Part shown: piece after piece, positions 3,509 to 64,000 of the stretch | Layout of the letters: every line of letters begins with the position of its first letter | Numbering within the stretch: position 1 is the stretch's first letter | DNA from: Chloroflexota bacterium | GTDB lineage: Bacteria > Chloroflexota > Dehalococcoidia > Lucifugimonadales > UBA826 | Assembly: GCA_002722155.1 (NCBI GenBank) | Contig: PBKS01000019.1 | Location: 60,687 to 124,686, forward strand | Direction of reading: 5' to 3' | DNA length: 64,000 nucleotides | Notes under the pieces: generated by a model | Told to the model about the DNA's origin: nothing | What the model saw: only the letters and a program-made list of their open reading frames with translations | The model's database searches: none | Made by a program: the position numbers and the translations under genes

Positions 3509-3522
3509 TAAGCACCACATAC

Positions 3523-3564
3523 TAACTATATAGCCTGTCCAGCTAACTATATAGCCTGTCCAGC
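3523..3564 (+). repeat. Perfect 21-bp tandem duplication (taactatatagcctgtccagc x2)
   Basis: Units 3523..3543 and 3544..3564 are identical. Each carries a 3' arm complementary to box copy 1. Confidence 0.9.
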
Positions 3565-3965: not shown

Positions 3966-4513
3966 ACCAACCATTTGACCTTTAAATCAGTCAGCAACAA
4001 CGCCGTCATACCTTAGCAACGACGACGCCATACCTAACTGCATTCAACTTCTCAGTCTGCCCAGCTCCCGGAGAACAACAGCTTCATTTAATTCTGAACT
4101 CCTTAGGAAATATGCCTTGAAACCAGTAAAATCTTTAGCTCAATTCAGTCTTATTCTAAGAAAAATTAGTATAGCTGATTTAATCAGACCAAATCGTTAC
4201 TAACCCATGAATTGTGTTTCATGAACGATAATTTGGGCCTTTAATGGCTGGAAACAAATTGACGTTGAAATTCACTGTCTCCCCCCTTGCACATTAGTAA
4301 ATATGGGGTGTACAACATATATCGTAAACGATGATCAATTTTGATTGATTTTCAGGAGTGACGGAGAGATCAAAAAAGTTATTGAATTATTAAGAAAATC
4401 CTCTCCAAGAAATTTTCCGGGGTGATACCTAAAGGCTTCGATAAAAATCGAATATAGACACCGCTTCAGGTATGGGTAGGCAAAGTGTTGGCGAGTCGGA
4501 AATCTCCAGGTCT

Positions 4514-4532
4514 GCCCTTTGAAAAAAGGGGC
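4514..4532 (+). other. Hairpin in the dnaA leader
   Basis: gcccttt / aaggggc stem of 7 bp (one G-U), loop gaaaa, followed by ttt. Lies 34 nt upstream of the dnaA ATG at 4566. Confidence 0.3.
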
Positions 4533-4565
4533 TTTAACACTGTAGGCGGTTTTGTGCAAAAATTT

Positions 4566-11883: not shown

Positions 11884-13281
11884 ATGGTTGTAGCTAAATC
11901 CCAAGAAGAAATCAGCTTAATGGCACATTTCATGAGACGAGCAGGTTTTGGCGCATCCAGGGAAGAAATAGAGTCAAGGTGCGAGGTTGGGTACTCAGAG
12001 ACGGTTGAAGAGTTACTTGCACCCTCAAATCAGATTCCAGTGGATATATACGAATTCATCAGATACTACCCAATGTGGTGGAAACCGGGAACAATGGGCG
12101 GTCTTGGTCAAGCTGGATGGGTGTGGACAATGATAAACACACCGGCGCCTCTGCAAGAGAAATTGTGTGTGTTCTACCACAATATTTTTGCCACTGGCGT
12201 TGCTAAAGTGGACCATTATGATGAAATTCAAGACATGATCGACATGTTTAGAGAAAAAGGACTTGGCTTCTATAAGGATATCTTGCTAGAGGTAGCCAAA
12301 AGTCCTGCCATGATTTATTGGCTTGACAACAATGAAAATCACTCCGATTCCATTAATGAAAATTGGGGCCGAGAATTGTTAGAACTATTCACCATGGGGG
12401 TTGGTAACTACACAGAGGAGGATGTTCAGGAGTGCTCTAGGGCCTTCACAGGTTGGACCCTTGAACATAAATTGCCGAGGTTTCACATGGGGAGATGGGA
12501 CTGGCATTTCAAATTTATGGAAGAAGATCATGACTATGGTGAAAAGGAATTCCTTGGACAAAAAGGCAACTTTGACGGTGAAGATATCATAGATATAATT
12601 CTTTCAAAACCTGCCACTGCCTATTTTATAGCTCGACATCTCTACAGTTTTTTTGTAGAAGATGAGCCCCAAGTACCTGCATGGTCTGTTGTACCTCCGA
12701 ACAATCCAGGGGCCGTTGAATTCTTAGCGGAAGCTCTATTAGACAGCGACTACCACATGGAAACCGTACTCAGAAAACTATTTCACAGTGATTTTTTCAA
12801 AGAATCTAGGTTCACAAGAGTCAAAAACCCAACTGAAGTCGTTATCGGAACCCTTAGATTAGTTGGTAACGGCAACTTGCCTTCTCCAGATATATTGGAT
12901 TGGACCGGCCAAATAGTCTACATGGGGCAAGACCTCATGAATCCCCCAAGTGTTGAAGGGTGGCACTCTGGAATAGAGTGGATCAACAGTGGCACGTTGA
13001 TGAAACGTACCAATTTCATGTCAGAAATGATTGGAGATTATTCTCGCCCTGGTGTAAAAAAAATAATCGATAGAGTTAGCTCGGTTTCCAGCAACCCTGA
13101 AGATGTAGTGGACTCTTGTCTAGATGTAATGGGTCCACTGACAATAACTGAAAAGACAAGAGCGGAACTTATCGAGCACGTTTCTCAACAAGGTGAATTT
13201 AACTGGCAATCCGATGGAGTTACAAGAGCATTGGAATTGCTTCAACTTATCGTGGCCACCAGAGAATTCCAATTTGCATAG
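11884..13281 (+). CDS. DUF1800-family protein
   Basis: 465 aa. HFMRRAGFGAS and PAMIYWLDN...NENWGRELLELFTMGVGNYTEEDV...AFTGWT match my recollection of DUF1800. No signal peptide seen. Confidence 0.75.
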   Translation: MVVAKSQEEISLMAHFMRRAGFGASREEIESRCEVGYSETVEELLAPSNQIPVDIYEFIRYYPMWWKPGTMGGLGQAGWVWTMINTPAPLQEKLCVFYHNIFATGVAKVDHYDEIQDMIDMFREKGLGFYKDILLEVAKSPAMIYWLDNNENHSDSINENWGRELLELFTMGVGNYTEEDVQECSRAFTGWTLEHKLPRFHMGRWDWHFKFMEEDHDYGEKEFLGQKGNFDGEDIIDIILSKPATAYFIARHLYSFFVEDEPQVPAWSVVPPNNPGAVEFLAEALLDSDYHMETVLRKLFHSDFFKESRFTRVKNPTEVVIGTLRLVGNGNLPSPDILDWTGQIVYMGQDLMNPPSVEGWHSGIEWINSGTLMKRTNFMSEMIGDYSRPGVKKIIDRVSSVSSNPEDVVDSCLDVMGPLTITEKTRAELIEHVSQQGEFNWQSDGVTRALELLQLIVATREFQFA

Positions 13282-15479: not shown

Positions 15480-15665
15480 TTATAGAGCCCTTCGTTTGTA
15501 GGATCTGTTATCATCGTAATAGATAGTTATTATCGCGGATCATGATATTTATTTGACATTTAATGAGTTAATCTCTCGGCTATGTTCATAATATAATGTT
15601 GGCTATATGAAGTTGCGGTCATTTTGAATCGTCAACTCAAATGAATGATTGTGTGGAGGTTACCC

Positions 15666-17471
15666 ATGCGCAAGAACGGTTTGACTTATTTGTTGGTTGG
15701 TGCTATCACAGCCCTGATGCTTTCTGTAGCTGTGGGTTGTAGTTCTTCTGAAGAAGAAACCACTTCGGCTCCAGCAGCAGCTTCGGCTCCAGCAGCAGCT
15801 CCAGCTCCAGCGACAAAAGCAGCTCCGGCAGCAAAAACAACCAACGTATTTGGTCGTGAAATGCCAAGTGACGCTGCTCCAATGGCAGATCAATTTCTTA
15901 AAATTAACTATGAAAAAGAAGGTGAGGCACTAGAATTCGCTGTCAGTGTTTACAACTCTGCGGCAGGAAGCATACAGAGTGGCTTTAGCCTAGCATTATT
16001 GAGTACGGACCTATCTACCGTACCAGGTGGTGCAACAGATTGGTCGTCTTCACCAGACATGAAAACTTGGACATTTAATATCGATCCGGATCTCACGTGG
16101 AGCGATGGCGTCCCTGTCACCGCTCATGACTATGTGTATACATGGCAATACTACGCTGACCCAGATCATGCTTATGACTTTACATGGTATTTTGGAATGC
16201 TCGAAGTTGAAAACTATGGGGCTATTGAAGCTGGTGAAAAACCTTTGGATTCTCTAGGTGTCACGGCTAGTGACGATAATACCCTGGTCTTCCAGTTAGA
16301 TACCCCTGCTCCCTACGTTCCTGGTTTCATGATGTATGGTTCTCCTTTGGCAAAGCACGTGGCTGAAGAGCATGGCCCCACCTATTCAAACAAGCCTGAG
16401 ACCACAGTATCAAGCACTCCTTGGATTCTTAAAGAGTGGATCCCAAATCAGCACGCAGAATTTGAACCTAACCTTAACTACACAGGTAAGTTACTTCCTT
16501 ATATTGAAAATTTTAAGGCTGTTTACGGAGAACGTAAATTCGACGCTTATCTCGCAGGAGAACTTGACACTATCAGCGGACCCTTTACTCCCGCGGATCA
16601 AGAATTCCTGGAGAACGATGAGAAGCTCATGAGCCAGAGAGGTCTTTCACCGGGTGACTTCCGAACACACTACCTTTTCTTCGATTTCCAAAGCGAACCG
16701 TTCGATGATGTTAGAGTTAGGCAAGCTTTCGCTAAGGCTATTGATAGAGAATCAATAATCAATAACGTCGTCGGATCAGAAGGAGGGGAGCCAAGGTACG
16801 GTATCCTGATTCCTGGATTCCCAGATGCTGCAGGGCCTGACAAATTAAAGCAATACCAAGGCTTTGATGCGGCGGCAGCTCAGAAACTAATGGCTGATGC
16901 CGGATACGCAGGTGGCGAAGGATTCCCCAAGCTTGAAATGGCTTTGAGACAAGAAACCGAACTATTCCAGGCAGCAGCAGCAGCCGTTGCTCAACAGTTA
17001 AAGCAAAATATTGGTGTGGACGTAACCATCAACAATATGGACCGAAAGACTTACATGGCTGGCCTAAATGAACATGACTTGCAATTCGCAATGGTTTCAT
17101 ATGGGTTTGACTATGTAGATGCTTCCAACTTCATGGGTGTATTTAAGACTGACGGTCGCCATAACTGGAACAACAAAGAATTTGAGGATCTGAGGGTTGA
17201 AGCTGGAGCAATGGAACTTTCCGATGAAAGATCAGCGAAGATGATCAAGCTGCAGGAAATTCTTTCTGAAGATGTAGGAAGCGTGTTTTTCTGGTCTGAG
17301 ATTCAGAATCAGTTACACAAGCCTTACCTCAAAGGTGACTGGCGTGAAGAAAATCAGGCTGGGTGGGCAGGCCTTCAGTTCCCTAACTGGAACCCTGGCT
17401 TTGGGGCCCAAAACATTTATGAGGTGTATATCGGGGAAAATGTCAAAGAATATACTCGTTCGGCCTACTAA
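15666..17471 (+). CDS. ABC transporter substrate-binding lipoprotein, family 5 (peptide/nickel/opine type)
   Basis: Lipobox LSVAVGC followed by an Ala/Pro-rich tether. Family-5 SBP length and motifs (e.g. WSDGVPVTAHDYVYTW). The ATG at 15666 follows GGAGG; the ORF-track start at 15645 is less likely. Confidence 0.85.
   Translation: MRKNGLTYLLVGAITALMLSVAVGCSSSEEETTSAPAAASAPAAAPAPATKAAPAAKTTNVFGREMPSDAAPMADQFLKINYEKEGEALEFAVSVYNSAAGSIQSGFSLALLSTDLSTVPGGATDWSSSPDMKTWTFNIDPDLTWSDGVPVTAHDYVYTWQYYADPDHAYDFTWYFGMLEVENYGAIEAGEKPLDSLGVTASDDNTLVFQLDTPAPYVPGFMMYGSPLAKHVAEEHGPTYSNKPETTVSSTPWILKEWIPNQHAEFEPNLNYTGKLLPYIENFKAVYGERKFDAYLAGELDTISGPFTPADQEFLENDEKLMSQRGLSPGDFRTHYLFFDFQSEPFDDVRVRQAFAKAIDRESIINNVVGSEGGEPRYGILIPGFPDAAGPDKLKQYQGFDAAAAQKLMADAGYAGGEGFPKLEMALRQETELFQAAAAAVAQQLKQNIGVDVTINNMDRKTYMAGLNEHDLQFAMVSYGFDYVDASNFMGVFKTDGRHNWNNKEFEDLRVEAGAMELSDERSAKMIKLQEILSEDVGSVFFWSEIQNQLHKPYLKGDWREENQAGWAGLQFPNWNPGFGAQNIYEVYIGENVKEYTRSAY
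15763..15798 (+). repeat. 18-bp tandem duplication in the SBP tether region
   Basis: cttcggctccagcagcag x2 encodes the SAPAAA SAPAAA linker. Confidence 0.85.
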
Positions 17472-30407: not shown

Positions 30408-31424
30408 TTGAAGAGCACATCAATATATGACACATTTAATCGGCCCCTACGAGATCTCAGAATCTCTGTAACAGATCGTTGTAATTTCCGGTGCCCATAC
30501 TGTATGCCTGCTGAGATTTTTGGTGACCGATATGAATTTCTTCCTAGAGCAGATTTACTGACTTTTGAAGAGATAAGCCGCATAGTAAAGATTGCCGTTC
30601 AATTAGGAGTAACGAAAGTTAGAATCACCGGCGGTGAACCGTTGGTGCGTCAAAATATAGAAGAACTGGTGCAAATGATTGCTGAAGTAGAAGGGATTGA
30701 AGATTTAGCTATGACCACCAATGCCTACCTGTTATCGGGGTATGCGCAGAAATTAAAAAAAGCAGGGTTGCACCGAATAACGGTAAGTTTAGATTCCTTA
30801 GACGATACTGTTTTCCAGAAAATGAATGGAAGAGGATTCAGTACTGCTCGAGTTTTGGATGGAATAAAAGAAGCGAAAGAAGCAGGGTTACAGCCAATTA
30901 AAATCAATGCTGTTGTGCAGAAAGGGGTTAATGATCATACTGTCATCGAATTAGCAGAGTGGTGTAAGAATAATGGACATATACCCCGGTTTATCGAATA
31001 TATGGACGTTGGCACGTTAAATGATTGGAAGCTCCAAGAAGTTGTTCCTGCGAATGAAATTGTTGACTTAATTGGACAGCGTTTCCCAGCTGACCCCATA
31101 GTACCTACTTATCAAGGGGAAGTCGCTCAAAGATATCGTTATAGGGACGGGCAAGGTGAATTTGGTGTTATCTCTTCTGTATCTCAACCATTCTGCGGAG
31201 ATTGCTCACGGATGAGACTTTCTCCTGAAGGAAAGGCTGTCACTTGTCTTTTTGCGGAGTCGGGTACTGATTTGAGGGAATGGCTAAGAAATGGGGCAAC
31301 AGATGATCAAATTAAACAAACCATTGTTGGTATATGGGGAACCAGAGAGGATCGATATTCTGAAGAACGATCTGAAGAGACGGTAAAAAGAAAGAAAGTT
31401 GAGATGTACCATATTGGCGGCTAA
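30408..31424 (+). CDS. moaA: GTP 3',8-cyclase MoaA (radical SAM)
   Basis: 338 aa. LRISVTDRCNFRCPYCMP radical-SAM cluster and a C-terminal CGDCSRMRLSPEG second cluster. Confidence 0.92.
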   Translation: MKSTSIYDTFNRPLRDLRISVTDRCNFRCPYCMPAEIFGDRYEFLPRADLLTFEEISRIVKIAVQLGVTKVRITGGEPLVRQNIEELVQMIAEVEGIEDLAMTTNAYLLSGYAQKLKKAGLHRITVSLDSLDDTVFQKMNGRGFSTARVLDGIKEAKEAGLQPIKINAVVQKGVNDHTVIELAEWCKNNGHIPRFIEYMDVGTLNDWKLQEVVPANEIVDLIGQRFPADPIVPTYQGEVAQRYRYRDGQGEFGVISSVSQPFCGDCSRMRLSPEGKAVTCLFAESGTDLREWLRNGATDDQIKQTIVGIWGTREDRYSEERSEETVKRKKVEMYHIGG

Positions 31425-31839
31425 TAAATACTCAGAGAAAGCTCCTATCGTCATATATACGGATGGTGCGTGTCTCGGGAATCCAGGCCCTGGCGGTTGG
31501 GGAGCAGTCGTTTTTGTAAACGAAAAAAAAACCATGCTCCATGGTTCACAAGAGAATACCACCAATAACAGAATGGAAATTATGGCTGTAATAGAGGCGT
31601 TAAGATTTATTCCCACAGATGCTGATGTGAAAATCTTTTCTGATTCCACGTACGTTATTAACACCATGACGAAGAATTGGAAAAGAAAAAAGAATCAAGA
31701 CTTGTGGATCATGTTGGATAATGAGGTTGCCGGTAGGAATATTGAATGGCAATGGGTAAAAGGTCATTCTGGAGATCTTTTTAATGAAGAAGCTGACAAA
31801 TTAGCATATGAAGAAGCTCAGAAGGTGTCTAAAAAATGA
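31399..31839 (+). CDS. rnhA: Ribonuclease HI
   Basis: IYTDGACLGNPGPGGWG, TNNRMEIMAVIEAL, SDSTYVIN and WVKGHSG..NEEADKLA motifs. The start is TTG 31399 or TTG 31414; both overlap the moaA 3' end. Confidence 0.9.
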   Translation: MRCTILAANKYSEKAPIVIYTDGACLGNPGPGGWGAVVFVNEKKTMLHGSQENTTNNRMEIMAVIEALRFIPTDADVKIFSDSTYVINTMTKNWKRKKNQDLWIMLDNEVAGRNIEWQWVKGHSGDLFNEEADKLAYEEAQKVSKK

Positions 31840-36602: not shown

Positions 36603-37154
36603 TTGGCTTGGATAGAAGAAGATTCTAGATACTCAGACGTTGCCAACGTTATTAAATGTATGTCACTTAATGAAGAGGCCATGCATGCTGTTTGGGATAT
36701 GGGGAATAAAATTACCTTTGGTTCTTCTTCATTGACTAGAGCTCAAGAAGAAATAATAGCGACAGTTGTATCCTCCATAAATCATTGCAAGTATTGAACT
36801 GTTTCTCATGGAGAGTATCTTCGTCAAGCTACAGAAGATCCTGAAATGGCGTCGATTATCATGCAGGATTATGGTAATGCAACTCTTGATCCCGAAACCT
36901 TGGCTATCGTTGAGTACGTTGAAAAATTGACTGTACGGCCATCTGAAATAACTGAAGAGGACATTCAAACACTTAGAAAGGTAGGATTGTCAGACCATCA
37001 GGTTCTATCTGTCGTAATGATTACAGCTATGTTCGCCTTCATGAACAGACTCGCTGACGGACTAGGGGTCCAAATAGAAGATTCCAAGGGTGACTTTGTC
37101 AATTCTTGGTTTCAAACAAACGGGCCGATAGGATCTTGGTTGAACGTATCCTAG
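36603..37154 (+). CDS. AhpD-like / carboxymuconolactone-decarboxylase-family peroxidase-related protein with in-frame TGA (candidate selenocysteine) at 36795..36797
   Basis: ORFs 36603..36797 and 36846..37154 share one frame. Read through, the 183-codon product has the family layout (MAWIE..., ...FMNRLADGLGV). The TGA replaces the second Cys of the C-x-Y-C-x3-H motif (INHCKY-TGA-TVSH). TTG start after AGGGAAGGG. Confidence 0.75.
36817..36839 (+). promoter_or_regulatory. Candidate bacterial SECIS hairpin
   Basis: aucuuc / gaagau 6-bp stem (plus a possible inner gu/ac pair) starting 19 nt after the UGA. Confidence 0.4.
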
Positions 37155-47810: not shown

Positions 47811-49346
47811 GTGAATATTAAAATGAAAACATATATGGCACTAACCTTTTTGGGCCTTTCTACACTTTTGTTTGTTCCGGAGGTTGGTGCCCACGGCTTT
47901 GGAGAAAGATATGATTTACCCATTCCTTTAAGCTATTTTCTCCTAGGCTCAGCTCTTGCAGTGGCCTTATCTTTTGCCGTTATTGGTTGGTTTATACGCT
48001 CGAGTGCCAATAACTCTGAGTATCCAAGGTTTAATATTTTTCGATTCTTTGTGATCGAATTGGTTTGCAAAATCACTTCCAAAATATTCGGGTTGATTTC
48101 GGTTTTGATCCTCTTTTTATCGATTCACACCGGTCTTATCGGTACTTCAAATGCGATAGAAAATTTTGCGCCAGTTTTTGTCTGGATCATATGGTGGGTT
48201 GGGGTTGGGTATGTTGTGTGTCTGGTGGGGAATATATGGTTAATTATGAACCCTTGGTTAGTTATATTTAACTACTTGGAACAATTATTTGGTAAACGGA
48301 CAGGGTTTGTAGATTGGCCCAAAAAGCTAGATGCGTGGCCAGCTCTTGGATTTTTCCTTCTATTCGCTTGGATTGAAAATGTACATCCTGCCAGTTCCGA
48401 GCCGTTCAGTTTGGGGATTTTATTAATAATTTATTCTCTTTTGACATGGGGAGGGATGATTTTATTTGGGAAACATGTGTGGTTAACACACGGAGATCCT
48501 TTTTTTGTTTTATTTAATTTGTTTGCTCGCTTTTCTGCTACGGAATTAAGGGTGCATGGCAACAAAAATTGGTGTGCCTCCTGCTCTTCTGGATGTCAGG
48601 AAAACCTTCAGCTAACTGACTGTGTTGATTGTTATGAATGTTGGGAAAATGCACCTTCACAAAATAGGGAATTTTCATTAAGGCCCTGGTCAGCCGGCCT
48701 GTCTCGAGGAGATCGAGTTACCCCTGCAATAATGTTCTTCCATGTGACTGCCCTGGCTACGGTTTCCTTTGATGGGTTTTCTGAAACCCCTGCATGGGTT
48801 GAGATCCAAACTATTTTGTGGCCGCTAATTGACCCACTTCCGGGTTCTGCAGCTGCCATGGTGAAAACATTGGGAATAATTCTGGTGCCTATAATTTTTG
48901 CAGGGGTATATTTGTACGTATGTGGTTTTATATCTCGAATGTCCCATGGGCAAATGACGCCCACAGATATTAGGATGAGTTTTGTATTTTCTTTAGTCCC
49001 AATAGCCCTAGCCTATAACCTTTCCCACTATCTATCCTTTCTATTAATTACTGGACAGGAAATAATTCCTCTTGTGTCAGATCCTTATGGCTTTGGATGG
49101 AATTTGTTTGGTACGACAGACTTTAAGGTAAATATAGCCATTATTGATGCTAGGGTTGCTTGGATATTTTCAGTGATTGCTTTGGTGACAGGTCACATAA
49201 TATCTGTATTTACTGCCCACGTAATAGCTTTGAGGAAAACTAAAACGCATGCAATTGCTGTCAGAAGCCAATACCCGATGCTGTTTTTAATGGTGTTTTA
49301 TACTGCCGTGAGCTTGTGGATAATTGCTCAACCAATTGTGGAATAG
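47811..49346 (+). CDS. Hypothetical polytopic membrane protein (about 11-12 TMS) with predicted mature N-terminal His and a six-Cys loop
   Basis: 511 aa. Signal-like N-terminus with a V-G-A|H-G-F-G cleavage context (His codon 47892..47894). Loop WCASCSSGCQENLQLTDCVDCYECW (48573..48641). Start alternatives are 47823 and 47835. Confidence 0.7.
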   Translation: MNIKMKTYMALTFLGLSTLLFVPEVGAHGFGERYDLPIPLSYFLLGSALAVALSFAVIGWFIRSSANNSEYPRFNIFRFFVIELVCKITSKIFGLISVLILFLSIHTGLIGTSNAIENFAPVFVWIIWWVGVGYVVCLVGNIWLIMNPWLVIFNYLEQLFGKRTGFVDWPKKLDAWPALGFFLLFAWIENVHPASSEPFSLGILLIIYSLLTWGGMILFGKHVWLTHGDPFFVLFNLFARFSATELRVHGNKNWCASCSSGCQENLQLTDCVDCYECWENAPSQNREFSLRPWSAGLSRGDRVTPAIMFFHVTALATVSFDGFSETPAWVEIQTILWPLIDPLPGSAAAMVKTLGIILVPIIFAGVYLYVCGFISRMSHGQMTPTDIRMSFVFSLVPIALAYNLSHYLSFLLITGQEIIPLVSDPYGFGWNLFGTTDFKVNIAIIDARVAWIFSVIALVTGHIISVFTAHVIALRKTKTHAIAVRSQYPMLFLMVFYTAVSLWIIAQPIVE

Positions 49347-49877: not shown

Positions 49878-50031
49878 CGGGAGGCAGTAGTAGTTTGGAT
49901 TGAGATGAGCTTTGGTTAGACACCGTAATTCCTGTGGAGTAAAGGCGATCAAACAGGACGGCCGGTCCAGCTTCCATACCGAGGTTAACCCCTTAAATTC
50001 GAAGGAATTCCCTTCGGTGGGTGACGACACC

Positions 50032-51417
50032 ATGAAAGAAGCGTGTGGAGTAGTGGGTGTGTATGCGAGGGAGGAGGATGTGGCTCGATCGGTATTTTTT
50101 GGTTTGTATGCCTTGCAGCATAGAGGCCAAGAGAGCGCAGGGATAGCTGCCAGTGATGGGCGTAGAACTAGGCTACATACTGAAATGGGTCTGGTCTCAC
50201 AAGCTTTTCAGGAAAACGATCTATCTCATTTGTCTGGCCATATTGGAATTGGACACACAAGATATTCAACCACTGGTTCCAGCAATATCAATAATGCGCA
50301 ACCTATACTTTGCACCGGAAGCAGTGTTGAAATTTCCCTTGCCCACAATGGGAATGTCATTAATGCTGTGGATCTTAGAGAGGAATTACTGGATTGGGGT
50401 ATCCAATTCCAATCTTCAGGAGACTCAGAAATTATAGCCCATTTAATTGCCAATGCACCTGCGGAGAATTGGACCGAACGCATTGCATACACGATGAGAA
50501 GGCTGCAAGGGGCTTACTCTTTGGTTGTTATGACAAACCGAGAACTGTTAGGGGTTAGGGATCCTTTGGGGGTTAGGCCTCTCTGCATCGGTAAATTAAA
50601 TTCAGGCTGGGTCTTAGCATCAGAATCATGTGCACTTGATCATATAGGTGCTGAATTTGTGAGAGAGGTGAAACCCGGAGAGGCGGTCTTGATTGATGAT
50701 AATGGCATTACATCAATTTATCAGAAGCCAAAGGACGGTGTCTTTGGAAGGTGCATATTTGAACAAATTTATTTTTCTAGACCAGATTCATTATTGGATG
50801 GACAATTGGTTTATAGCTCTAGAATGGCCATGGGAGCTCAGTTGGCAAAGGAATATCCAGTCGAGGCAGACTTGGTAATAGGTGTCCCTGATTCCGCGAC
50901 GGCCTCAGCAGTTGGTTATTCACAGGAGTCAGGAATCCCGTTCACAGAAGGATTGGTAAAGAATCGCTATGTTGGAAGAACCTTTATTTTGCCGGATCAA
51001 CGGCTAAGAGAGCTTGGGGTTCGAAGAAAATTGAATCTGCTTCCCCAAATCCTTGAAGGAAAAAAAGTGGTTGTAGTTGATGACAGTATAGTTAGAGGAA
51101 CTACCACTCCCCATGTAGTAAATCTTTTGAGGAAAGGTGGAGCTAAAGAAATCCATCTTCGTATTTGTGCACCCCCGATTGTTTCCCCTTGCCATTTCGG
51201 AGTAGATATGGCTACCAAGTCGGAATTATTGGCAAGTACAAATTCGGTCGATGAAATACGAGACTTAATTGGTGCTGATTCTCTAGGTTTTTTAAGCCAG
51301 GAAGGCCTACTAGAATCAGTTTCTGGTAATCGAAGCGAATACTGTATGGGATGTTTCACTGGTACATATCCGATACCAGTTCAACTTGAAATGGATAAAT
51401 TAGTTTTAGAAACTTAA
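50032..51417 (+). CDS. purF: Amidophosphoribosyltransferase
   Basis: MKEACGVVGVY (Ntn Cys after a short propeptide), PRPP loop VVVVDDSIVRGTT, and C-terminal Cys ligands (CHFG, CMGCFTG) for a 4Fe-4S cluster. The ORF-track start 49912 extends into the leader. Confidence 0.93.
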   Translation: MKEACGVVGVYAREEDVARSVFFGLYALQHRGQESAGIAASDGRRTRLHTEMGLVSQAFQENDLSHLSGHIGIGHTRYSTTGSSNINNAQPILCTGSSVEISLAHNGNVINAVDLREELLDWGIQFQSSGDSEIIAHLIANAPAENWTERIAYTMRRLQGAYSLVVMTNRELLGVRDPLGVRPLCIGKLNSGWVLASESCALDHIGAEFVREVKPGEAVLIDDNGITSIYQKPKDGVFGRCIFEQIYFSRPDSLLDGQLVYSSRMAMGAQLAKEYPVEADLVIGVPDSATASAVGYSQESGIPFTEGLVKNRYVGRTFILPDQRLRELGVRRKLNLLPQILEGKKVVVVDDSIVRGTTTPHVVNLLRKGGAKEIHLRICAPPIVSPCHFGVDMATKSELLASTNSVDEIRDLIGADSLGFLSQEGLLESVSGNRSEYCMGCFTGTYPIPVQLEMDKLVLET

Positions 51418-53154: not shown

Positions 53155-54675
53155 ATGAAAGCCTTATTGAGCGTCTATAACAAAGATAATATAGAACATA
53201 TCGGAACTTCTCTTAGTGAGGCAGGGTATGAAATTATAAGTACCGGAGGGACCTATAATTCTTTAAAAAAAGCTGGTATTTCAGTAAGACAAGTTTCGGA
53301 ATTAACAGGGTTTCCTGAAATACTAGATGGTCGTGTTAAAACGTTGCACCCAAAAGTTCATGGAGGAATCCTTGGGCGGCGTGATATTCCTGAACATAAA
53401 AAGGAAATGGAATCTAATGACATATCTGCAATAGATGTGGTGGTAGTTAATTTATATCCGTTTGTCGATACGGTTCAAAAAGATAAGGTTTCTCTAGCTG
53501 AGGTGTTGGAAAATATAGATATTGGTGGCCCTACAATGATCCGGTCTGCTGCGAAAAATTTTTCGCACGTTTTGGTTGTTGTGGATCCTCTAGATTATGA
53601 ATGGATTGCTCAAAAAATTGCCTCTGGAGAAACGGTGAGCGAAGTTGAAAGAAAAAAATTAGCTCAAAAAGCTTTCCAGCATGTCGCAGTTTATGATACT
53701 GCAATATCAACCTGGTTGAATGAGGCTCCCCTAAAGTCGGATGAATTATCTATTGGGCTTGATAAAGTTGATACTCTTCGTTATGGGGAAAACCCCCATC
53801 AGGAGGCAGTAGTTTATAAAAACACTCTGGGTAAGGGTGGAATAGTAGAAGCTGACCAATTACATGGTTTGCCTATGTCCTACACAAATTATCTCGATGC
53901 GGATGCTGCATGGACGACGGTAACTAGTTTTGATCAGAATGCTTGTGTGGTGGTGAAACATACTAACCCTTGTGGTATTGCTTTGAATAATGAACAATCG
54001 GTGGCTTATGAGGCAGCATTGCAAGGTGATTCAATTTCTGCATATGGTGGCATTGTTGGGTTCAATAATATTGTGACCACAAAGACAGCTGAAACAATGC
54101 GAGGGGTCTTGTTTGACATAATTGTAGCGCCAGGCTATGAACCGGAAGCCCTAGAAATTTTAAAAAAACGTAAAAGGACAAGACTTCTTAAGGTAAACTC
54201 TGCATTTGGATCATGGTCGAATTTAAAGGCGTTGACAATATCAGGAGGTATGTTAGTTCAAACAGTAGATGATATTAAAGAGGATCCGAATGATTGGAAA
54301 GTGGTTACTGAGAGGTTACCCACAGCGCAAGAATATGCAGACCTTGAGTTTGCATGGAACTGTTTACGACATATTAAGTCCAATACAATTGTTTTAGCAA
54401 AAGACAACACTTTGGTAGGAATGGGAGCCGGACAACCCAATAGGCTTGTAAGCGTACATTTGGCATTGCGAATTGCAGGTGATAAATCAATTGGCTCTTC
54501 TCTTGCTTCCGACGCCTTCATGCCGTTTGCTGATAATGTGGAGTTAGCAGTGGGAGGAGGGGTCACAGCTATTATTCAGCCTGGTGGATCCATTAGAGAT
54601 AAAGAAGTCATTGAGGCTGCAAATGAGCATTCCATCACGATGATGTTTACAGGTACAAGGCATTTCAACCACTGA
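53155..54675 (+). CDS. purH: Bifunctional AICAR transformylase / IMP cyclohydrolase
   Basis: ALLSVYNK, GRVKTLHPKVHGGIL, VVNLYPF, and the C-terminal QPGGSIRD...TGTRHFNH. Confidence 0.95.
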   Translation: MKALLSVYNKDNIEHIGTSLSEAGYEIISTGGTYNSLKKAGISVRQVSELTGFPEILDGRVKTLHPKVHGGILGRRDIPEHKKEMESNDISAIDVVVVNLYPFVDTVQKDKVSLAEVLENIDIGGPTMIRSAAKNFSHVLVVVDPLDYEWIAQKIASGETVSEVERKKLAQKAFQHVAVYDTAISTWLNEAPLKSDELSIGLDKVDTLRYGENPHQEAVVYKNTLGKGGIVEADQLHGLPMSYTNYLDADAAWTTVTSFDQNACVVVKHTNPCGIALNNEQSVAYEAALQGDSISAYGGIVGFNNIVTTKTAETMRGVLFDIIVAPGYEPEALEILKKRKRTRLLKVNSAFGSWSNLKALTISGGMLVQTVDDIKEDPNDWKVVTERLPTAQEYADLEFAWNCLRHIKSNTIVLAKDNTLVGMGAGQPNRLVSVHLALRIAGDKSIGSSLASDAFMPFADNVELAVGGGVTAIIQPGGSIRDKEVIEAANEHSITMMFTGTRHFNH

Positions 54676-54684
54676 CAATTTATC

Positions 54685-55452
54685 TTGGGGAATATTTTGA
54701 TTGATTCGTCAAATTCTTTGGACATAGTTCTTCCTGTCCTTAATGAAGAAAAAGTATTAGAGAGTAGTGTTGAAACTTTAATATCTTTTTGTAATGAAAA
54801 CATTAGAGCCTATGATTGGCTTATTACAGTGGCCGATAATGGGTCAACAGATAGAACTCTTCGGATTGCTCAGGCGTTATCCGAAAAATATTCGAAAGTT
54901 CGATATATTCGTCTTCAAGAGAGAGGTAGAGGTCGGGCATTAAAGAAGGCCTGGTCGCAAAGTGGATCAAAAATACTAGCTTATATGGACGTGGATCTCT
55001 CCACGGACCTCAGAGCTCTACCTGATTGCTTAAAAGCGGTGAACGAATCAAAAATTCAAATTGCGGTGGGATCTAGGTTAATAGCGGGTTCTAATGTGAT
55101 TGGTAGATCGTTTAATCGGGAATTCATTTCCCGTAGTTACAGTCTACTGTTTAGAATGATGTTCATGGTTTCCTTCAGAGACGCCCAATGTGGATTTAAG
55201 GTTGTGTCTAGAAAAGTAGTTGAAGAGGTTGTTCCATTGGTAAAAAACGACAATTGGTTTTTTGACACTGAACTTTTAATGCTGGCTGAAAAAAACGGGT
55301 ATCCTATTGCGGAAATCCCTATAACATGGGTGGATGATCCGTCATCTAAGGTCAATATAATGAGAACTGCATTTGAAGATATTAAAGGGCTTTTGAGACT
55401 CAGATTTCGAGATGTAGCCAGATCTCGAAAGCTACTGAAATATTGTGAGTAG
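54685..55452 (+). CDS. Family-2 glycosyltransferase (polyprenyl-phosphate glycosyltransferase-like)
   Basis: VLPVLNEE, DNGSTDRT, YMDVDLS (DxD) and QCGFK motifs. The start is ambiguous (TTG 54685 or 54697). Confidence 0.8.
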   Translation: MGNILIDSSNSLDIVLPVLNEEKVLESSVETLISFCNENIRAYDWLITVADNGSTDRTLRIAQALSEKYSKVRYIRLQERGRGRALKKAWSQSGSKILAYMDVDLSTDLRALPDCLKAVNESKIQIAVGSRLIAGSNVIGRSFNREFISRSYSLLFRMMFMVSFRDAQCGFKVVSRKVVEEVVPLVKNDNWFFDTELLMLAEKNGYPIAEIPITWVDDPSSKVNIMRTAFEDIKGLLRLRFRDVARSRKLLKYCE

Positions 55453-55564: not shown

Positions 55565-56614
55565 GTGCCATGGGCCTGCTTAATGACAACTCCTCAATTT
55601 GATATAAGACCGTCCTTAATAAAAGGTGATCCTGCTGATGCATACCTGCATTGGACTAAGGAAGTAATGCGGTTAGAGTCACTTAACCCTAAAGTGTTAA
55701 TGGATTTTTCAGCTTCTAGGGCTGGTGTCCTATGTGGAGTAGAAGAGGCGAAGGCCCTTTTACTAAATGTTCTTCCCAAAGTGGAGCATGACAGTCAGGC
55801 AAACAATGGTAGCGATTTCGTTCAAGTATGGGCAATGGAAGAAGGCGAAAAATTCGAAGCTGGAGAACCTGTATTGCGTGTGATATCAAAATACGCTTCT
55901 TTTGGGCTCTATGAAACCAGCATATTGGGCATGCTTTCTTCGTCAACAGGATGGGCTACAGCCGCTAGTGAATGTGTCGAGTCTGCCGGCGAAACGACTG
56001 TTATAGCTTATGGGGCTAGGCACATACATCCGAATGTGGCGCACATACTTGATTATGCTTCTGTAATTGGAGGATGTTCATCAGTATCTACGATTTTAGG
56101 TTCTAAGCATGCTGGGAGGAATCCGCTGGGTAATATGCCTCATAGTTTGCCGTTGTTATTTGGTGATACTGTCGCCGCGGCTCAGGCTTTCGATAAGCAT
56201 ATTGGTATGGAAACTCAGAGAATAGTAGTGGTCGATACTTTTAAAGATGAGGCTGAAGAATCCTTAAATGTGGCGGAGGTTCTAAGAGATCGACTTAGAG
56301 GAATAAGATTGGATACCCCTGCCGAAAGAGGAGGTGTTACTCCTATGTTGGTAAGGGAAATTCGGAACCGACTTGACCATATGAATTTCAAACACGTGGA
56401 AATATATGTCAGTGGTGGATTCAGTCCTGAGAAAATCAGAGAGTTTAGAGAATATGAAGCGCCGGTAAATGGATACTTAGTTGGTAGCTATATTTCATCT
56501 GCCGTTCCAAATGAGTTTAGAGCTGATATTCTGGAAATAGAAGATAAACCAGTTGCGAAAAGAGGACGTGTGCCTGGCCGTCTTGACGGTAATCGGTTGG
56601 ATAGAATTCTCTGA
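55565..56614 (+). CDS. Nicotinate phosphoribosyltransferase family protein
   Basis: About 343-349 aa. VVDTFKDE and GIRLDTP motifs, with the type-II PRTase barrel layout. The ATG at 55583 is an alternative start. Confidence 0.7.
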   Translation: MPWACLMTTPQFDIRPSLIKGDPADAYLHWTKEVMRLESLNPKVLMDFSASRAGVLCGVEEAKALLLNVLPKVEHDSQANNGSDFVQVWAMEEGEKFEAGEPVLRVISKYASFGLYETSILGMLSSSTGWATAASECVESAGETTVIAYGARHIHPNVAHILDYASVIGGCSSVSTILGSKHAGRNPLGNMPHSLPLLFGDTVAAAQAFDKHIGMETQRIVVVDTFKDEAEESLNVAEVLRDRLRGIRLDTPAERGGVTPMLVREIRNRLDHMNFKHVEIYVSGGFSPEKIREFREYEAPVNGYLVGSYISSAVPNEFRADILEIEDKPVAKRGRVPGRLDGNRLDRIL

Positions 56615-56616
56615 TA

Positions 56617-58071
56617 TTAGGGGGTTCTAGGGTTGAAAACGATTCGCAGTACACGGTTATGTTTTGGAGGTGTTGCCCACTCCGCTATTCTCAGCCCTAC
56701 CACAGCTGCAATACCCTTATTAGAAACTATTAGAGGAACTAAATCACGATCTCGACGTGGTATTTTAGAATCTACCATAAAATCCTGTAGTTTCTTAGAG
56801 TTGGTCATTCCTGAAGGTTGAAAGATATCCCCAGGATTTCGATAACGTACCCATAAAGGCTCATTGCTTAGATTCATGTTGAGCGATGCCATTAAGCTAT
56901 CTGTTCCAACGTCTTTTATATGAGAACAATCATTTTCAGTCTGTAAGAATGCTGATATTTTCCAGCGTTCGGTAAAAGTGGATCCTGGAATTTTAATTAA
57001 GGTTGTGTTGTTTAAATTTGTGATCTTTGAGGGAGCATCAGTTGGCATAAAAATCAAAAGTTCTTCGTACACTTTTGTGACAATAAAACCTCCAGGAAGG
57101 TCAATAGATCTTCCTGTTGTTCCTTCGGTTATATCCAGCATCGATTCGATATGTTTATAAAAAACGTCTTGTTGCTCTCCGGTAGCCGTTTTGGCGGCTT
57201 TTTGCAATATTCTCCATTTCAATGATGGATGTAGTTTGCTCAAGGGATTTAATTTAATTCTGATTTCATCGTCCATTATAGTTGCTATAGAAGGCCAAAT
57301 CTCTTCTACTTTTGCACTTATATAGTTGTAATCCCGCTTTGCGGAATGTCCTAATTTATCTATAGATTTATATATTCCAGAATTGTACTTTTTCAGAAAT
57401 GGTAACAACTCTAATCGAACTGAATTTCGGGTGTATTCTGTGGAGGTGTTAGTTTGGTCTGATCGCCAAGGAATGTTATTAACACTGCAGTATTCGAGGA
57501 TTGAGTCTTTACTTAAAGTAAGCATTGGCCTAAAAATATTTATACCCAGATTGCCAATAGTTTGATGTGACATTTCGGCCATTCCTTGAAGTCCATTCAA
57601 ACCAGAGCCTCTAATGATATGCATTAATATTGTTTCGACTTGATCTTCGAAGTTATGACCTAGTATGAGGATAGATTTGTTATTTTTTTCATGAATGTGG
57701 GATGCGAAAAATTCGTATCGTGCTGATCTAGCTGCGTCTTCTAATGAGATTTTGTGTTTTTTAGATAGCTCGACTACGTTTTTCTCTGAGGCATATGTTG
57801 CTATACCTAAAGAATCAAAATAAGTTTGAACAAAAACTGAATCAGACTTGGCAGCCTCTCCCCTGATCTGATGGTTAAAGTGTAGGACTTCAACATTTGA
57901 ACTTATTTCGTTTTTAATCTTAATCAATGCATGTGCCATGGCCATAGAATCAGGCCCACCAGAGACGGCTAGTGAAAGATTTTGACCTTTAACGCCATGG
58001 GTGTTAGCTATATTTAGAATGGTTTTTTCGATGGAGAGAGCTTTCATATGAATATTTAAGGCTTTAATCAA
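56617..58071 (-). CDS. tilS: tRNA(Ile)-lysidine synthase
   Basis: PP-loop LAVSGGPDSMAM, LGHNFEDQVETILM, and a C-terminal TilS substrate-binding domain. TTG at 58071 or ATG at 58047. Confidence 0.9.
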   Translation of the reverse strand: MIKALNIHMKALSIEKTILNIANTHGVKGQNLSLAVSGGPDSMAMAHALIKIKNEISSNVEVLHFNHQIRGEAAKSDSVFVQTYFDSLGIATYASEKNVVELSKKHKISLEDAARSARYEFFASHIHEKNNKSILILGHNFEDQVETILMHIIRGSGLNGLQGMAEMSHQTIGNLGINIFRPMLTLSKDSILEYCSVNNIPWRSDQTNTSTEYTRNSVRLELLPFLKKYNSGIYKSIDKLGHSAKRDYNYISAKVEEIWPSIATIMDDEIRIKLNPLSKLHPSLKWRILQKAAKTATGEQQDVFYKHIESMLDITEGTTGRSIDLPGGFIVTKVYEELLIFMPTDAPSKITNLNNTTLIKIPGSTFTERWKISAFLQTENDCSHIKDVGTDSLMASLNMNLSNEPLWVRYRNPGDIFQPSGMTNSKKLQDFMVDSKIPRRDRDLVPLIVSNKGIAAVVGLRIAEWATPPKHNRVLRIVFNPRTP

Positions 58072-58673
58072 TACGAGGGTGTTTCATTCATAGTTAGAAG
58101 ACGGTATGAGTCTTTTTGTATTTCAATAGATGAGATTGAACCTAAATTTATATCAAGTTTATCGAAATGATTTGAATGTATACCTAACACGTTGCAAAGG
58201 ATGCCCTGGATTGGAAAAAGGTGAGCTACCACAGCTACCAAGTCTTCATCATAGTCATTGAAAATTTTCAAAATGGCTTTCCAAGCTCTTTCATGTACTT
58301 CACCGAGGGTTTCTCCTCCTGGTGGTCTAGCTGTGGAATGATCTCGTCTCCATCTTGCCATATATTCTGGATATTTATTATTCATTTCAGAGGCTTTAAT
58401 CCCTTCCATTTCACCTGAATCCATTTCCTTCAGTCCATCCAAATAAATTGGATCGAGATCAGTGAGTTTTGAAATATATCCGGCAGTCTCCTTAGCCCTA
58501 AAATAAGGGCTAGAGAACAAAAGAGTAGGATGATATTTCATAGAAGATATTTTTTGCGCTGCACCATCAGCTTGGCGTCTTCCTAAATCAGTTAATGCTA
58601 CATCACTGGTACCCAGAACCAACTGGTTCTTGTTAGCTATTGTTTCACCATGTCTAATTAGTAAAATTTTCAT
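58068..58673 (-). CDS. Histidine phosphatase family protein (third paralog)
   Basis: MKILLIRHGETIAN. 201 aa. The TGA stop overlaps the tilS TTG. Confidence 0.8.
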   Translation of the reverse strand: MKILLIRHGETIANKNQLVLGTSDVALTDLGRRQADGAAQKISSMKYHPTLLFSSPYFRAKETAGYISKLTDLDPIYLDGLKEMDSGEMEGIKASEMNNKYPEYMARWRRDHSTARPPGGETLGEVHERAWKAILKIFNDYDEDLVAVVAHLFPIQGILCNVLGIHSNHFDKLDINLGSISSIEIQKDSYRLLTMNETPSY

Positions 58674-59979
58674 CGTTAATGTTGTTTGATTCCGAATGTG
58701 CAGAAGTGTTTTCTGTGTTTGAATCTCGTGTGATTAGTAGGGACTCAATCTTAAATCGGTCCATTTCTAACACACGGAATGTCAAATCCTTGTATTCAAA
58801 TTCATCATTTAAATTTGGAATTTCTCCTATTTGATCTAAAACGAAACCTGCTATTGTTTCATATTCACCTTCCGGAAGGTCTAAATCCATTTCATTGTTA
58901 GCTTCCACTATGTCCATGCTTCCTTCAATCTGGAAAACGTTAGGCATGATGTTTTCATACTCAGATTCCGGTGATTCGCCCTCTTCCCCGACTCTGCCTA
59001 CTATTAGCTCTGTTAGTCTTTTAAGGGTCACTAACCCTGCTAATCCGCCGTATTCATCTAAACAAATCGCCATTTGATTACCAGCATGTCGGAGCTCTTC
59101 AAAAAGCTCAGAGGCCCATTTCGTTTCAGGTACAAAATGGGCATCCCGAATGACATCTGTAACGGAATCATTTTCATTTATTCCTTTCGTCGATAACATT
59201 CTCAGTACATCTTTAGCGGAGATTATTCCCACAATATTTTCATTAGTGTCCTTGTAGATGGGAAATCGTGTGTGAGAATGTTCTGAATATATAGAAAGGA
59301 AGTTACCAAAGGTTGTGCCACGCTCCATCACAATAATTTCGGTTCTAGGAGTCATTATTTCCCTAACTTGAGTATCTCCAAAACGGAATACGTTTTCTAG
59401 CATTTCTGCTTCGCTTGGTTCGACGGTACCCTCTGCTTCACCGAGATCTATCATCGACAAAATTTCACCTTCGGTTACTCCATCTTCCGATTCTTGTTCC
59501 TGCCCAAAGATAGATTGAGACGTCCTTGATAGCCATTGCAAAAATAAGATTAAAGGGTATAAGGATAGTTCAACTATTTTGAGTGGTCGGGCGTATAAAA
59601 ATGAAACTTTTTCTGATTTTTTGACGGCTAAACTCTTAGGTATTATTTCCCCAAAAATTAATAATAGTCCTGTTCCTACGATGGTGGCGGCGGCTACTGC
59701 GAGGGGACCTTCTTTCAACCATTTGACGGCCAAAGCAGTTACAACCGCGGTGAAGGCTACATTCACCAAGTTGTTACCCAACAAGATTGTTGAAAGCAAT
59801 CTTTCGGTGTTCGCGACCATGTTATGAACACGCTGGGCACCTGGTATGTGGTTGTTCACCAGATAATTTAGCCGTGTTCTTTGGAGGGAAAGGAATGCTG
59901 CTTCTGAACTTGAAAAAAAGGCCGACAGAAGAAGAAATATCCCTATTAGTACTATGCTAACAGTAGTGTCGTTTGACAA
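58654..59979 (-). CDS. CNNM/CorC-family membrane protein (DUF21 + CBS pair + CorC_HlyC)
   Basis: 441 aa. N-terminal 4-TM DUF21, the CBS pair region REIMTPRTEI..., and the C-terminal transporter-associated domain. Confidence 0.85.
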   Translation of the reverse strand: MSNDTTVSIVLIGIFLLLSAFFSSSEAAFLSLQRTRLNYLVNNHIPGAQRVHNMVANTERLLSTILLGNNLVNVAFTAVVTALAVKWLKEGPLAVAAATIVGTGLLLIFGEIIPKSLAVKKSEKVSFLYARPLKIVELSLYPLILFLQWLSRTSQSIFGQEQESEDGVTEGEILSMIDLGEAEGTVEPSEAEMLENVFRFGDTQVREIMTPRTEIIVMERGTTFGNFLSIYSEHSHTRFPIYKDTNENIVGIISAKDVLRMLSTKGINENDSVTDVIRDAHFVPETKWASELFEELRHAGNQMAICLDEYGGLAGLVTLKRLTELIVGRVGEEGESPESEYENIMPNVFQIEGSMDIVEANNEMDLDLPEGEYETIAGFVLDQIGEIPNLNDEFEYKDLTFRVLEMDRFKIESLLITRDSNTENTSAHSESNNINDENFTN

Positions 59980-61809: not shown

Positions 61810-62685
61810 TTAAGAGATTAGCTCCCGCAGTGTTTCACCGATTGAACCAGGTCCAGGAATAACAGAGACGCCGGCGCTGGAAAGAGTTTTTATCTTTTCT
61901 TCGGCCTTTCCTGCGGAACCGGTGATAATGGCACCGGCATGGCCCATGCGTTTTCCTGGAGGTGCACTTTGACCGACGATTAAAGCCGCAATGGGCTTGG
62001 TAAAGTCGCTTTTTATATACTCGGCGGCTTCCTGCTCTTTTGTTCCACCAATTTCTCCGATCATGACAACGTTGTCGGTATAGGGATCGTTTTCGAATTT
62101 TTCTAGGATGTCTACGAAGGTAACCCCAGAAACAGGATCCCCCCCGATCCCTACGCAGGTTGACTGGCCAATATTAAGGTCAGTTAACTGGCCAACTGCT
62201 TCGTAGGTTAATGTGCCACTTCTAGAGACTACTCCTGTTCTGCCGGGCAAATGTATGTGACCAGGCATTATTCCCATTTTGAAATTCTCTCCTGGAGAAA
62301 TGATACCTGGGCAGTTTGGACCGATTAGAGTGACATCTTTATCCTTGAGGTACCTGACTACCTTTATAGTGTCTTGCACAGGTATTCCTTCAGTTATACA
62401 AGCTATTACATTGATTCCAGCATCTATGGATTCTACTATTGCGTCTGCAGCAAAGGCCGGGGGAACAAATATTAAGGATGCATTTGCAGATGTTTCGTCC
62501 ACAGCTTGTTGAACCGTATCGTAGATAGGAATTGTGCCGTCAAAAGATTGACCTCCCTTGCCAGGAGTGACTCCTGCTACTAAGTTTGCACCGTACTCCG
62601 CTGATCGTTGAGCGTGATAACTACCTTCTTTGCCGGTAATACCCTGTACTAATAGCTTTGTCGATTTGTCTACAAGAATACTCAT
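61810..62685 (-). CDS. sucD: Succinyl-CoA synthetase alpha subunit
   Basis: [19 protein letters not shown], and the phosphohistidine loop MGHAGAII. Confidence 0.95.
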
Positions 62686-62735: not shown

Positions 62736-63893
62736 TTAAGCTAGTTTTTTGATCTCGTTTGCGGCTTCCCCAAGGGTGTCAACTAGAATGATATCTAGAT
62801 TAGATTGGGCAAGAATCTCCCTCCCCTCATCAGAATTTGTTCCCAGCATTCTTACAACCATAGGCCTGATTCTGTCCGGTTGTTGCTCTGCAGCTAGCAA
62901 GAAGCCTCTTGCAGCTATATCACATCATAATATTCCTCCAAATAGATTTACTAAAACTGCCTTTACGCTGTCATCGGATAGGACTATATTGAGAGCTTTT
63001 GCCACCTTTTCTTCATTAGCTCCTCCACCGATATCCAAGAAGTTAGAAGGTGAAGCCCCAGCAGAACTTGTTACATCCATCGTAGCCATAGCTAGACCGG
63101 CACCATTTACTATACATCCGATAGTTCCATCTAATTTCACGTAGTTTATATCTGCAGATCGAGCTTCCACTTCAAGAGGATCCTCTTGAGAAAGATCTGT
63201 CATTTCTTGTATGTCCGGTTGCCTAAAAACGGCATCGTCGTCAATATCTAATTTCGCGTCAGCAGCTAAAACTTTCCCGTCCTTAGTAATTACTAAGGGG
63301 TTTATTTCCACTAATGAAGCATCTGTTTCGATGAATGCTCTATACAAGTTTTGGATCAGACTTGTGACGGCACGGATATATTCCTGTCCAAGATTGAGAC
63401 CGTAGGCTATTTTTCTACCTTGGAAAGGTTGTAGGCCCAATACTGGGTCGATTGGAATTTGGATTATCTTTTCTGGTGTCATTTCCGCCACTTCTTCTAT
63501 ATTCATCCCACCTGCCTCACTCGCGATTATGACTACTCCTTTGGAAGCCCCGTCTATAGCCATACCTAGATACAGTTCTTTCTCTATATCGATACCTTCT
63601 TCGATAAGCACAGAGTTAACAGGAACTCCTCCTGGACCAGTCTGAAAAGTGACAAGATTTGTTCCGATTAGAGATTCCGCGGCTTTTTGGGCAGATCCCG
63701 GAGATTCCACAATTTTAACCCCACCTCCTTTTCCTCTGCCTCCAGCATGTACTTGTGCCTTAACTACGACAGTGCCACCCATATCAAATGCCGCCGCCGC
63801 CGCCTGGCTTCCAGTTTTGGCTAATTGACCCTTTGGGATGGGAATCCCGTATTTTCCAAGTATTCCTTTTGCTTGGTATTCATGCAGTTTCAT
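62736..63893 (-). CDS. sucC: Succinyl-CoA synthetase beta subunit, interrupted by an in-frame TGA at 62925..62927 (recoding, mutation or sequence error)
   Basis: MKLHEYQAKGILGKYGIP ATP-grasp N-terminus, 322 aa up to ...VNLFGGIL. After the TGA the same frame continues for 62 codons: CDIAARGF...PMVVRMLGTNSDEGREIL...KKLA, then TAA at 62736..62738. This gives the canonical 385-codon length. Confidence 0.9.
62892..62916 (-). promoter_or_regulatory. Bulged hairpin 9-33 nt downstream of the sucC UGA (SECIS-like)
   Basis: mRNA AGCU-GCAAGA-[GGCU]-UCUUGC-U-AGCU. The stem is 6 bp upper plus 4 bp lower, with a single bulged U and a GG-initiated tetraloop. Confidence 0.35.
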
Positions 63894-63937: not shown

Positions 63938-64000
63938 TGGCGGAGGGTGTGGGATTCGAACCCACGATACCCGTTAGGATATGCCAGTTTTCAAGACTGG
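63938..64000 (-). tRNA. tRNA-Ser (anticodon UGA), 5' part cut by the window edge
   Basis: 3' end ...gtgggttcgaatcccacaccctccgcca (T arm, acceptor and CCA), long variable arm, anticodon loop CUUGAAA. Confidence 0.85.

Follow-up and report, generated by a model that had tools for sequence, protein, structure and literature searches.

An in-frame TGA upstream of a SECIS-like hairpin in a marine SAR202 sucC gene is very probably a private base change

The sucC gene in a 64,000-nt stretch of DNA from a SAR202/Dehalococcoidia population, referred to here as the window, is interrupted by an in-frame TGA, and a stable hairpin with a GG-initial loop follows shortly after it in the predicted mRNA. The locus raises the question of whether this UGA is recoded, as was proposed in a preliminary description that suggested a selenocysteine-cysteine (Sec-Cys) dyad in SucC and a new selenoprotein family, or whether it is an accident of this one assembly. 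Comparison with other assemblies of the same population argues strongly for the second answer, and the TGA is very probably a non-programmed C-to-T change, from CGA (Arg), that occurs in this assembly only and involves no recoding. The result is a negative one, in that an in-frame TGA with a textbook-looking hairpin in a Sec-using lineage turns out to look like a one-off base change once population contigs are compared, and it illustrates that population-level comparison is a cheap way to tell candidate Sec codons from singleton stops. For SucC itself no new biology follows, and we do not regard the TGA as a real recoding feature. The features discussed are listed in Table 1.

Table 1. Coordinates of the features discussed, as positions in the 64,000-nt window.
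Feature	Position	Strand	Remarks
sucC, ADP-forming succinyl-CoA synthetase beta subunit	62736..63893	-	385 codons, broken at codon 323 solely in the window
322-aa ORF of sucC	62925..63893	-	C-terminal end ...NLFGGIL
In-frame TGA, sucC codon 323	62925..62927	-	Population allele is CGA (Arg)
Private single-base difference	62927..62927		Window A on + strand (mRNA T); 7/7 contigs G (mRNA C)
Hairpin AGCUGCAAGA-GGCU-UCUUGC-U-AGCU	62892..62916	-	Within the codons for (I)AARGFLLA
sucD, alpha subunit	61810..62685	-	Intact; 50 nt downstream of sucC
tRNA-Ser, 3' part, cut by the window edge	63941..64000	-	Anticodon UGA, reads UCA
AhpD-like / CMD-family gene	36603..37154	+	PF02627, E = 3.9e-10; 26 kb from sucC
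In-frame TGA of the AhpD-like gene	36795..36797	+	In the HCKY-U-TVSH (CxxU) motif
Private SNV	1784		Synonymous, ATT to ATC in gene 1265..2122
Private SNV	49331		Synonymous, CAG to CAA in gene 47811..49346
Private SNV	51298		Glu-463 to Gln in the amidophosphoribosyltransferase-like gene 49912..51417
Length variant	~2805..2813		9 nt, window versus population contigs
Length variant	3522..3542		21-nt stretch in the window only, absent from population contigs
Length variant	~15763		In gene 15645..17471; 18-nt unit gained in three population contigs, lost in one
Gene with strong hairpin	10184..11785		Hairpin at codon ~49
Gene with strong hairpin	11884..13281		Hairpin at codon ~438
Gene with strong hairpin	55565..56614		Hairpin at codons 52-56
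Gene with strong hairpin	58654..59979		Hairpin at codons 65-67
purH-like gene	53155..54675	+	
Glycosyltransferase ORF	54685..55452	+	Same frame as the purH-like gene
dnaA homologue	4485..5984	+	Population gene calls with Pfam DnaA_N, Bac_DnaA and Bac_DnaA_C

In the ORF reading, the sucC frame opens on the minus strand with an ATG at 63893 and runs for 322 codons (...AVLVNLFGGIL) to the TGA, after which it stays open for a further 62 sense codons (CDIAARGFLLAAEQQ...KKLA; complete translation CDIAARGFLLAAEQQPDRIRPMVVRMLGTNSDEGREILAQSNLDIILVDTLGEAANEIKKLA) and closes with a TAA at 62736-62738. The preliminary description had this structure right (322 codons, TGA, 62 codons and TAA, for a total of 385), with all of its coordinates correct, and the sucD gene downstream is intact, as it also stated. 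Its assignment of the gene as sucC is upheld by Pfam domains and by structure matches: homologues with 85–91% identity are 385 aa long and contain PF08442 and PF00549 (ATP-grasp_2 and Ligase_CoA), and the window SucC matches the E. coli SucC structures (1cqi_B, and the 1jkj_B group that includes 1scu and 2scu) with E = 1.5e-116. A 385-aa query with an X at the stop matched ADP-forming succinyl-CoA synthetase beta subunits in their thousands; the best 120 of these matches share 72–91% identity with it, are nearly all exactly 385 aa, and derive from marine SAR202 and Dehalococcoidia metagenome bins and Tara Oceans assemblies. The gene has the attributes expected of a sucC, namely the ATP-grasp and CoA-ligase domains, a length of ~385–390 aa and an adjacent sucD, and it resembles its E. 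coli counterpart (PDB 1cqi, 1jkj, 1scu, 2scu) in length, in domain order, in the GGI-x-R-CD motif and in having sucD immediately downstream. The E. coli beta-subunit residue aligned with codon 323 is Arg-324, in the motif GGIV-R-C325-D, and it is at this equivalent position that the window copy differs from E. coli SucC in having a premature stop, whereas the population allele has none.

At position 62927 the window disagrees with all seven of the distinct contig sources that cover it, which are Tara/JGI assemblies of the same SAR202/Dehalococcoidia population. Three full-length copies of sucC, from independent Tara/JGI assemblies, share 1157 of 1158 nt with the window, and a fourth shares 1156; all four have CGA in place of the window TGA, which is the one difference common to them, and a fifth, partial copy also has CGA. 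The Tara Oceans runs that yielded population contigs are ERR594337, ERR599157, ERR598956, ERR594319, ERR599117 and ERR594323. The Arg-323 form of the exact window SucC is present in 22 contigs from NCBI, JGI, Tara, ENA and Logan (e.g. HCE77168.1). A protein identical to the window SucD occurs in 42 blocks of the public assembly collection (24 contigs read), and every contig listed with both this exact SucD and a whole sucC has an uninterrupted 385-aa sucC upstream. In more distant relatives the codon is CGT at 84–86% nucleotide identity and CGT or AGG at ~69%. Arg occupies the corresponding position (GGIL-R-CD) in all of the best 120 SucC homologues among the thousands matched, in agreement with the earlier recognition of the site as the Arg/Lys position of GGI-x-R-CD.

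Neither the 322-aa SucC product nor the possible C-terminal fragments were found in a collection of ~15 billion proteins. Exact-string scans of genome and metagenome contig collections for the TGA form of sucC returned no match, a result of low power since the CGA population contigs were missed too; with the codon left open, the same string scans of contigs recovered only four more distant contigs, all with CGT. Reading this codon in relatives was a check that the preliminary description had itself proposed, with Arg codons counting against Sec, and CGA in seven of seven population contigs gives that outcome. The proposal of a Sec-Cys dyad and a new selenoprotein family is contradicted at three depths of comparison, by CGA in near-identical contigs, CGT or AGG in relatives, and Arg in 120/120 homologues; the caveat attached to it, a single CGA-to-TGA change, matches the data exactly. 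At the level of assembled sequence these comparisons establish that the TGA is a singleton, that all relatives compared have Arg, and, as described below, that the hairpin is independent of the TGA. As read from these contigs, the natural SAR202 population encodes an ordinary SucC of 385 aa, in which residue 323 is Arg.

The degree to which the change is isolated is evident from the remainder of the window, which was tiled with near-identical contigs from 20 contig sources so as to cover 63,892 of its 64,000 nt. There are 145 polymorphic sites at which the window agrees with at least one tiling contig, and only four point positions in 63.9 kb at which it disagrees with every contig covering them, the sucC CGA-to-TGA change being the fourth of these. 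Apart from these point changes, what is private to the window consists of in-frame length variants (9, 18 or 21 nt), and no private frameshifts were found relative to the tiling contigs. With only four private SNVs over this length, the sucC change is an isolated event in an otherwise near-identical genotype, and we infer that the window is a clean assembly of a slightly distinct genotype with the sucC stop among its very few unique bases. The change is a single transition, CGA to TGA, in a codon that accounts for 141 of the 18,363 codons in the window genes, and it has the defining properties of a singleton, a one-base difference from otherwise identical population sequences that is absent from all other assemblies compared. 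We note that the length polymorphisms listed in Table 1 look like repeat-number variation in variable regions.

Judged from the assembled sequence, the chances that the TGA originated as a real nonsense allele or as a sequencing or consensus error are about even. Given the absence of private frameshifts and the biological look of the other private differences, which include synonymous SNVs and in-frame length variants, a plain sequencing error has no obvious advantage over a real allele as an explanation. Should the base be real in the cell, translation would end at codon 323; the truncated SucC, deprived of the last 62 residues of the CoA-ligase domain and with them of the end of the GGI-x-R-CD helix, would almost certainly have no activity save for trace near-cognate readthrough. 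Otherwise the base would stem from an error in base calling or in the consensus, or from a minority variant among the reads that the assembler took up. Knockouts of sucCD are viable in E. coli, so that the term essential, originally applied to sucC, is too strong, and such an allele could persist in a cell for some time. In kind, the sucC case does not differ from the ordinary CGA-to-TGA nonsense changes or consensus errors of metagenome-derived or single-cell assemblies; its sole oddity by comparison is that chance has placed it just upstream of a strong hairpin, in a lineage that decodes Sec.

The hairpin has 10 bp with one bulged U and a GGCU loop, and a predicted folding energy of -12.8 kcal/mol for a 29-nt piece. 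Its fold was correctly described at the outset (10 bp, bulged U and GG loop); its spacing was not, as the stem begins after 8 nt rather than nine, the ninth nucleotide past the UGA being the first base of the stem. The distance from the UGA to the loop is 18 nt. Compared with shuffled sequences the hairpin is only modestly more stable, with z = -2.2 when taken alone (equalled by 8/200 shuffles) and z = -1.1 within a 60-nt context (27/200), yet it is a strong structure locally: just 14 distinct 29-nt sites, counting both strands of the window (41% GC), fold as well as this one. In bacterial SECIS elements the apical loop lies 16–37 nt from the UGA (PMC10778597) and contains a conserved G (PMC1976440, figure legend), and the sucC hairpin conforms to this loose geometry by its spacing and by having G in the first two loop positions. 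The proportion of sense codons in the window genes with a downstream hairpin of such loose geometry is 1.08%, and that with an equally strong hairpin downstream in SECIS-like geometry is ~0.07%. An Rfam search of the sucC region, at the gathering threshold and in evalue mode, returned nothing relevant. Hairpins as strong or stronger (up to 15 bp, -17.9 kcal/mol), with G-containing loops and no TGA, lie inside four other genes of the window, from which it is apparent that SECIS-like hairpins occur in ordinary coding sequence here.

The CGA-bearing population contigs have a hairpin sequence identical to that of the window, and the hairpin must therefore be older than the TGA and not dependent on it. 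Relatives at ~85% nucleotide identity keep nine of the ten pairs, with one G-C changed to G-U, the outer A-U lost and the loop altered from GGCU to GGUU, and those at ~69% have five of ten pairs left; the minimum free energy, -12.8 kcal/mol in the window, weakens with divergence, lying first between -8.6 and -11.1 and further out between -4.6 and -8.1 kcal/mol. No compensatory double changes were found in the hairpin pairs among the relatives compared. Covariation in support of the hairpin was another check proposed at the outset, and there is none; the fold is unchanged where the codon is CGA, and in sucC it is neither kept nor co-varying together with a TGA. We infer that the hairpin is a by-product of codon choice for the conserved peptide AARGFLLA, and coincidental. 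The counter-point is that the TGA sits upstream of the loop of an unusually strong GG-loop hairpin in an organism that probably has Sec machinery, and this is a real coincidence, though one spotted post hoc.

The closest parallel is the E. coli fdhF-type SECIS, with which sucC shares an in-frame UGA followed by a hairpin inside the ORF, a GG-initial loop and a bulged U. The fdhF element has its bulged U (U17) on the 5' strand of the stem and a GGUC loop, whereas the sucC hairpin has a GGCU loop and carries its bulged U six pairs below this loop on the 3' strand. The sucC site further differs from fdhF-type elements in that its UGA is not conserved and aligns with Arg, and in that its hairpin exists without the UGA and shows no covariation. 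The sucC TGA and hairpin are like a bacterial SECIS in geometry only.

A stable hairpin shortly past a stop codon can in principle promote readthrough, and the sucC hairpin is so placed with respect to the TGA. It is very unlikely, nevertheless, that the TGA is a real allele kept functional by UGA readthrough, with a near-cognate tRNA inserting Trp, Arg or Cys. The downstream sucC frame is fully intact over its 62 codons, as such readthrough would require, but a very recent change or an error would leave the frame intact in any case, as outside this codon the gene does not differ from the population allele. None of the relatives compared has the TGA, and since the Arg that it replaces is invariant, most of the insertions would amount to missense changes at a site under constraint.

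The insertion of Sec at codon 323, with SelB binding the pre-existing hairpin as an accidental SECIS in a nascent selenoprotein or in a Sec-mediated nonsense rescue, is extremely improbable. We give equally little credence to the version in which the T allele is real and the newborn UGA, by chance at a suitable distance from the older hairpin, is read as Sec, forming a Sec-Cys dyad with Cys-325 at the CoA-thiol site. In favor of Sec are the fit of the hairpin to the loose published geometry, with its GG loop start and a loop distance within the published range (PMC10778597), and the very likely ability of the organism to decode Sec, as judged from an AhpD-like CxxU TGA in the population and from the selenoprotein richness of Dehalococcoidia (PMC13326102). 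Set against these are the presence of the sucC TGA in one assembly only, with CGA in all seven population contigs, and the identity of the residue it replaces, an Arg invariant in 120/120 homologues and not Cys. Selenoprotein criteria call for Sec/Cys pairing and for a conserved TGA in at least two different sequences, single sequences being possible sequencing errors (PMC1976440), and sucC has neither, since the TGA is not kept in a second homologous sequence and the site aligns with an invariant Arg outside of any redox motif. The hairpin, present without the TGA and with no covariation, and with its bulged U on the opposite side from that of fdhF and a GGCU rather than a GGUC loop, also tells against a SECIS role, and no SucC selenoprotein family is described in the literature searched. 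We favor instead the private C-to-T change.

The AhpD-like gene provides a control for this conclusion. Its in-frame TGA is present in 5/5 covering population contigs, which at ~100% identity to the window reflect sharing across samples and not deep conservation, and gene callers split the gene into 64 and 102 aa. The known selenoproteins of bacteria include an AhpD-like family (PMC1976440, PMC13326102). Dehalococcoidia, including marine ones, are among the most selenoprotein-rich bacteria (PMC13326102). The window gene is probably a genuine member of this family, and the earlier premise that the organism decodes Sec is probably right. The AhpD-like gene has a CxxU redox motif and a population-wide TGA, whereas the sucC TGA has no Cys counterpart, no redox motif and no sharing; that the AhpD-like TGA is seen in 5/5 contigs means that the same comparison does detect shared in-frame TGAs in this population. 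The UGA of the AhpD-like gene is followed, 17 nt downstream, by a weak 7-bp candidate hairpin with a GUA loop (-3.7 kcal/mol), in a region not more stable than shuffles; its spacing, nearly the same as that in sucC, is a further point in favor of a Sec reading of sucC.

No tRNA-Sec was found in the 64-kb window. The truncated tRNA adjoining sucC was considered as a candidate tRNA-Sec and rejected, as the piece scores 33 bits against an Rfam gathering score of 47, and the full copy, in contig L001 (1659..1748, located with ARAGORN immediately upstream of sucC), is a 90-nt tRNA-Ser with a long variable arm. This tRNA-Ser scores 59.6 bits with the general tRNA model and has the anticodon loop CUUGAAA.

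The two remaining explanations are weaker still. Genome-wide use of UGA as a sense codon (genetic code 4 or 25) has a negligible probability, being suggested by nothing but the sucC in-frame TGA itself and refuted by the long genes of the window, most of which have zero in-frame TGAs, by several genes that end in TGA (e.g. 55565..56614, 58068..58673 and 31399..31839), and by relatives that encode Arg at the site and not Trp or Gly. It is likewise vanishingly unlikely that sucC is a functional split gene made up of the 322-aa N-terminal piece and a 54-aa C-terminal piece starting at TTG 62900: this 54-aa ORF exists and has an SD-like AAGAGG 4 nt upstream of its TTG, but AAGAGG-TTG encodes R-G-F-L and for that reason is shared by every unsplit CGA relative, the arrangement would delete CDIAARGF from the conserved GGI-x-R-CD helix, the C-terminal fragment is absent from the ~15 billion proteins, and no split-gene relatives were found.

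Two other observations concern the window at large. The purH-like gene and the glycosyltransferase ORF that follows it are in the same frame, with a TGA and 9 nt between them, and this looks like simple adjacency and not readthrough, as the second gene (251 aa) has a start of its own in the population gene calls. The window also contains a dnaA homologue, from which we note that it may lie near the chromosomal replication origin.
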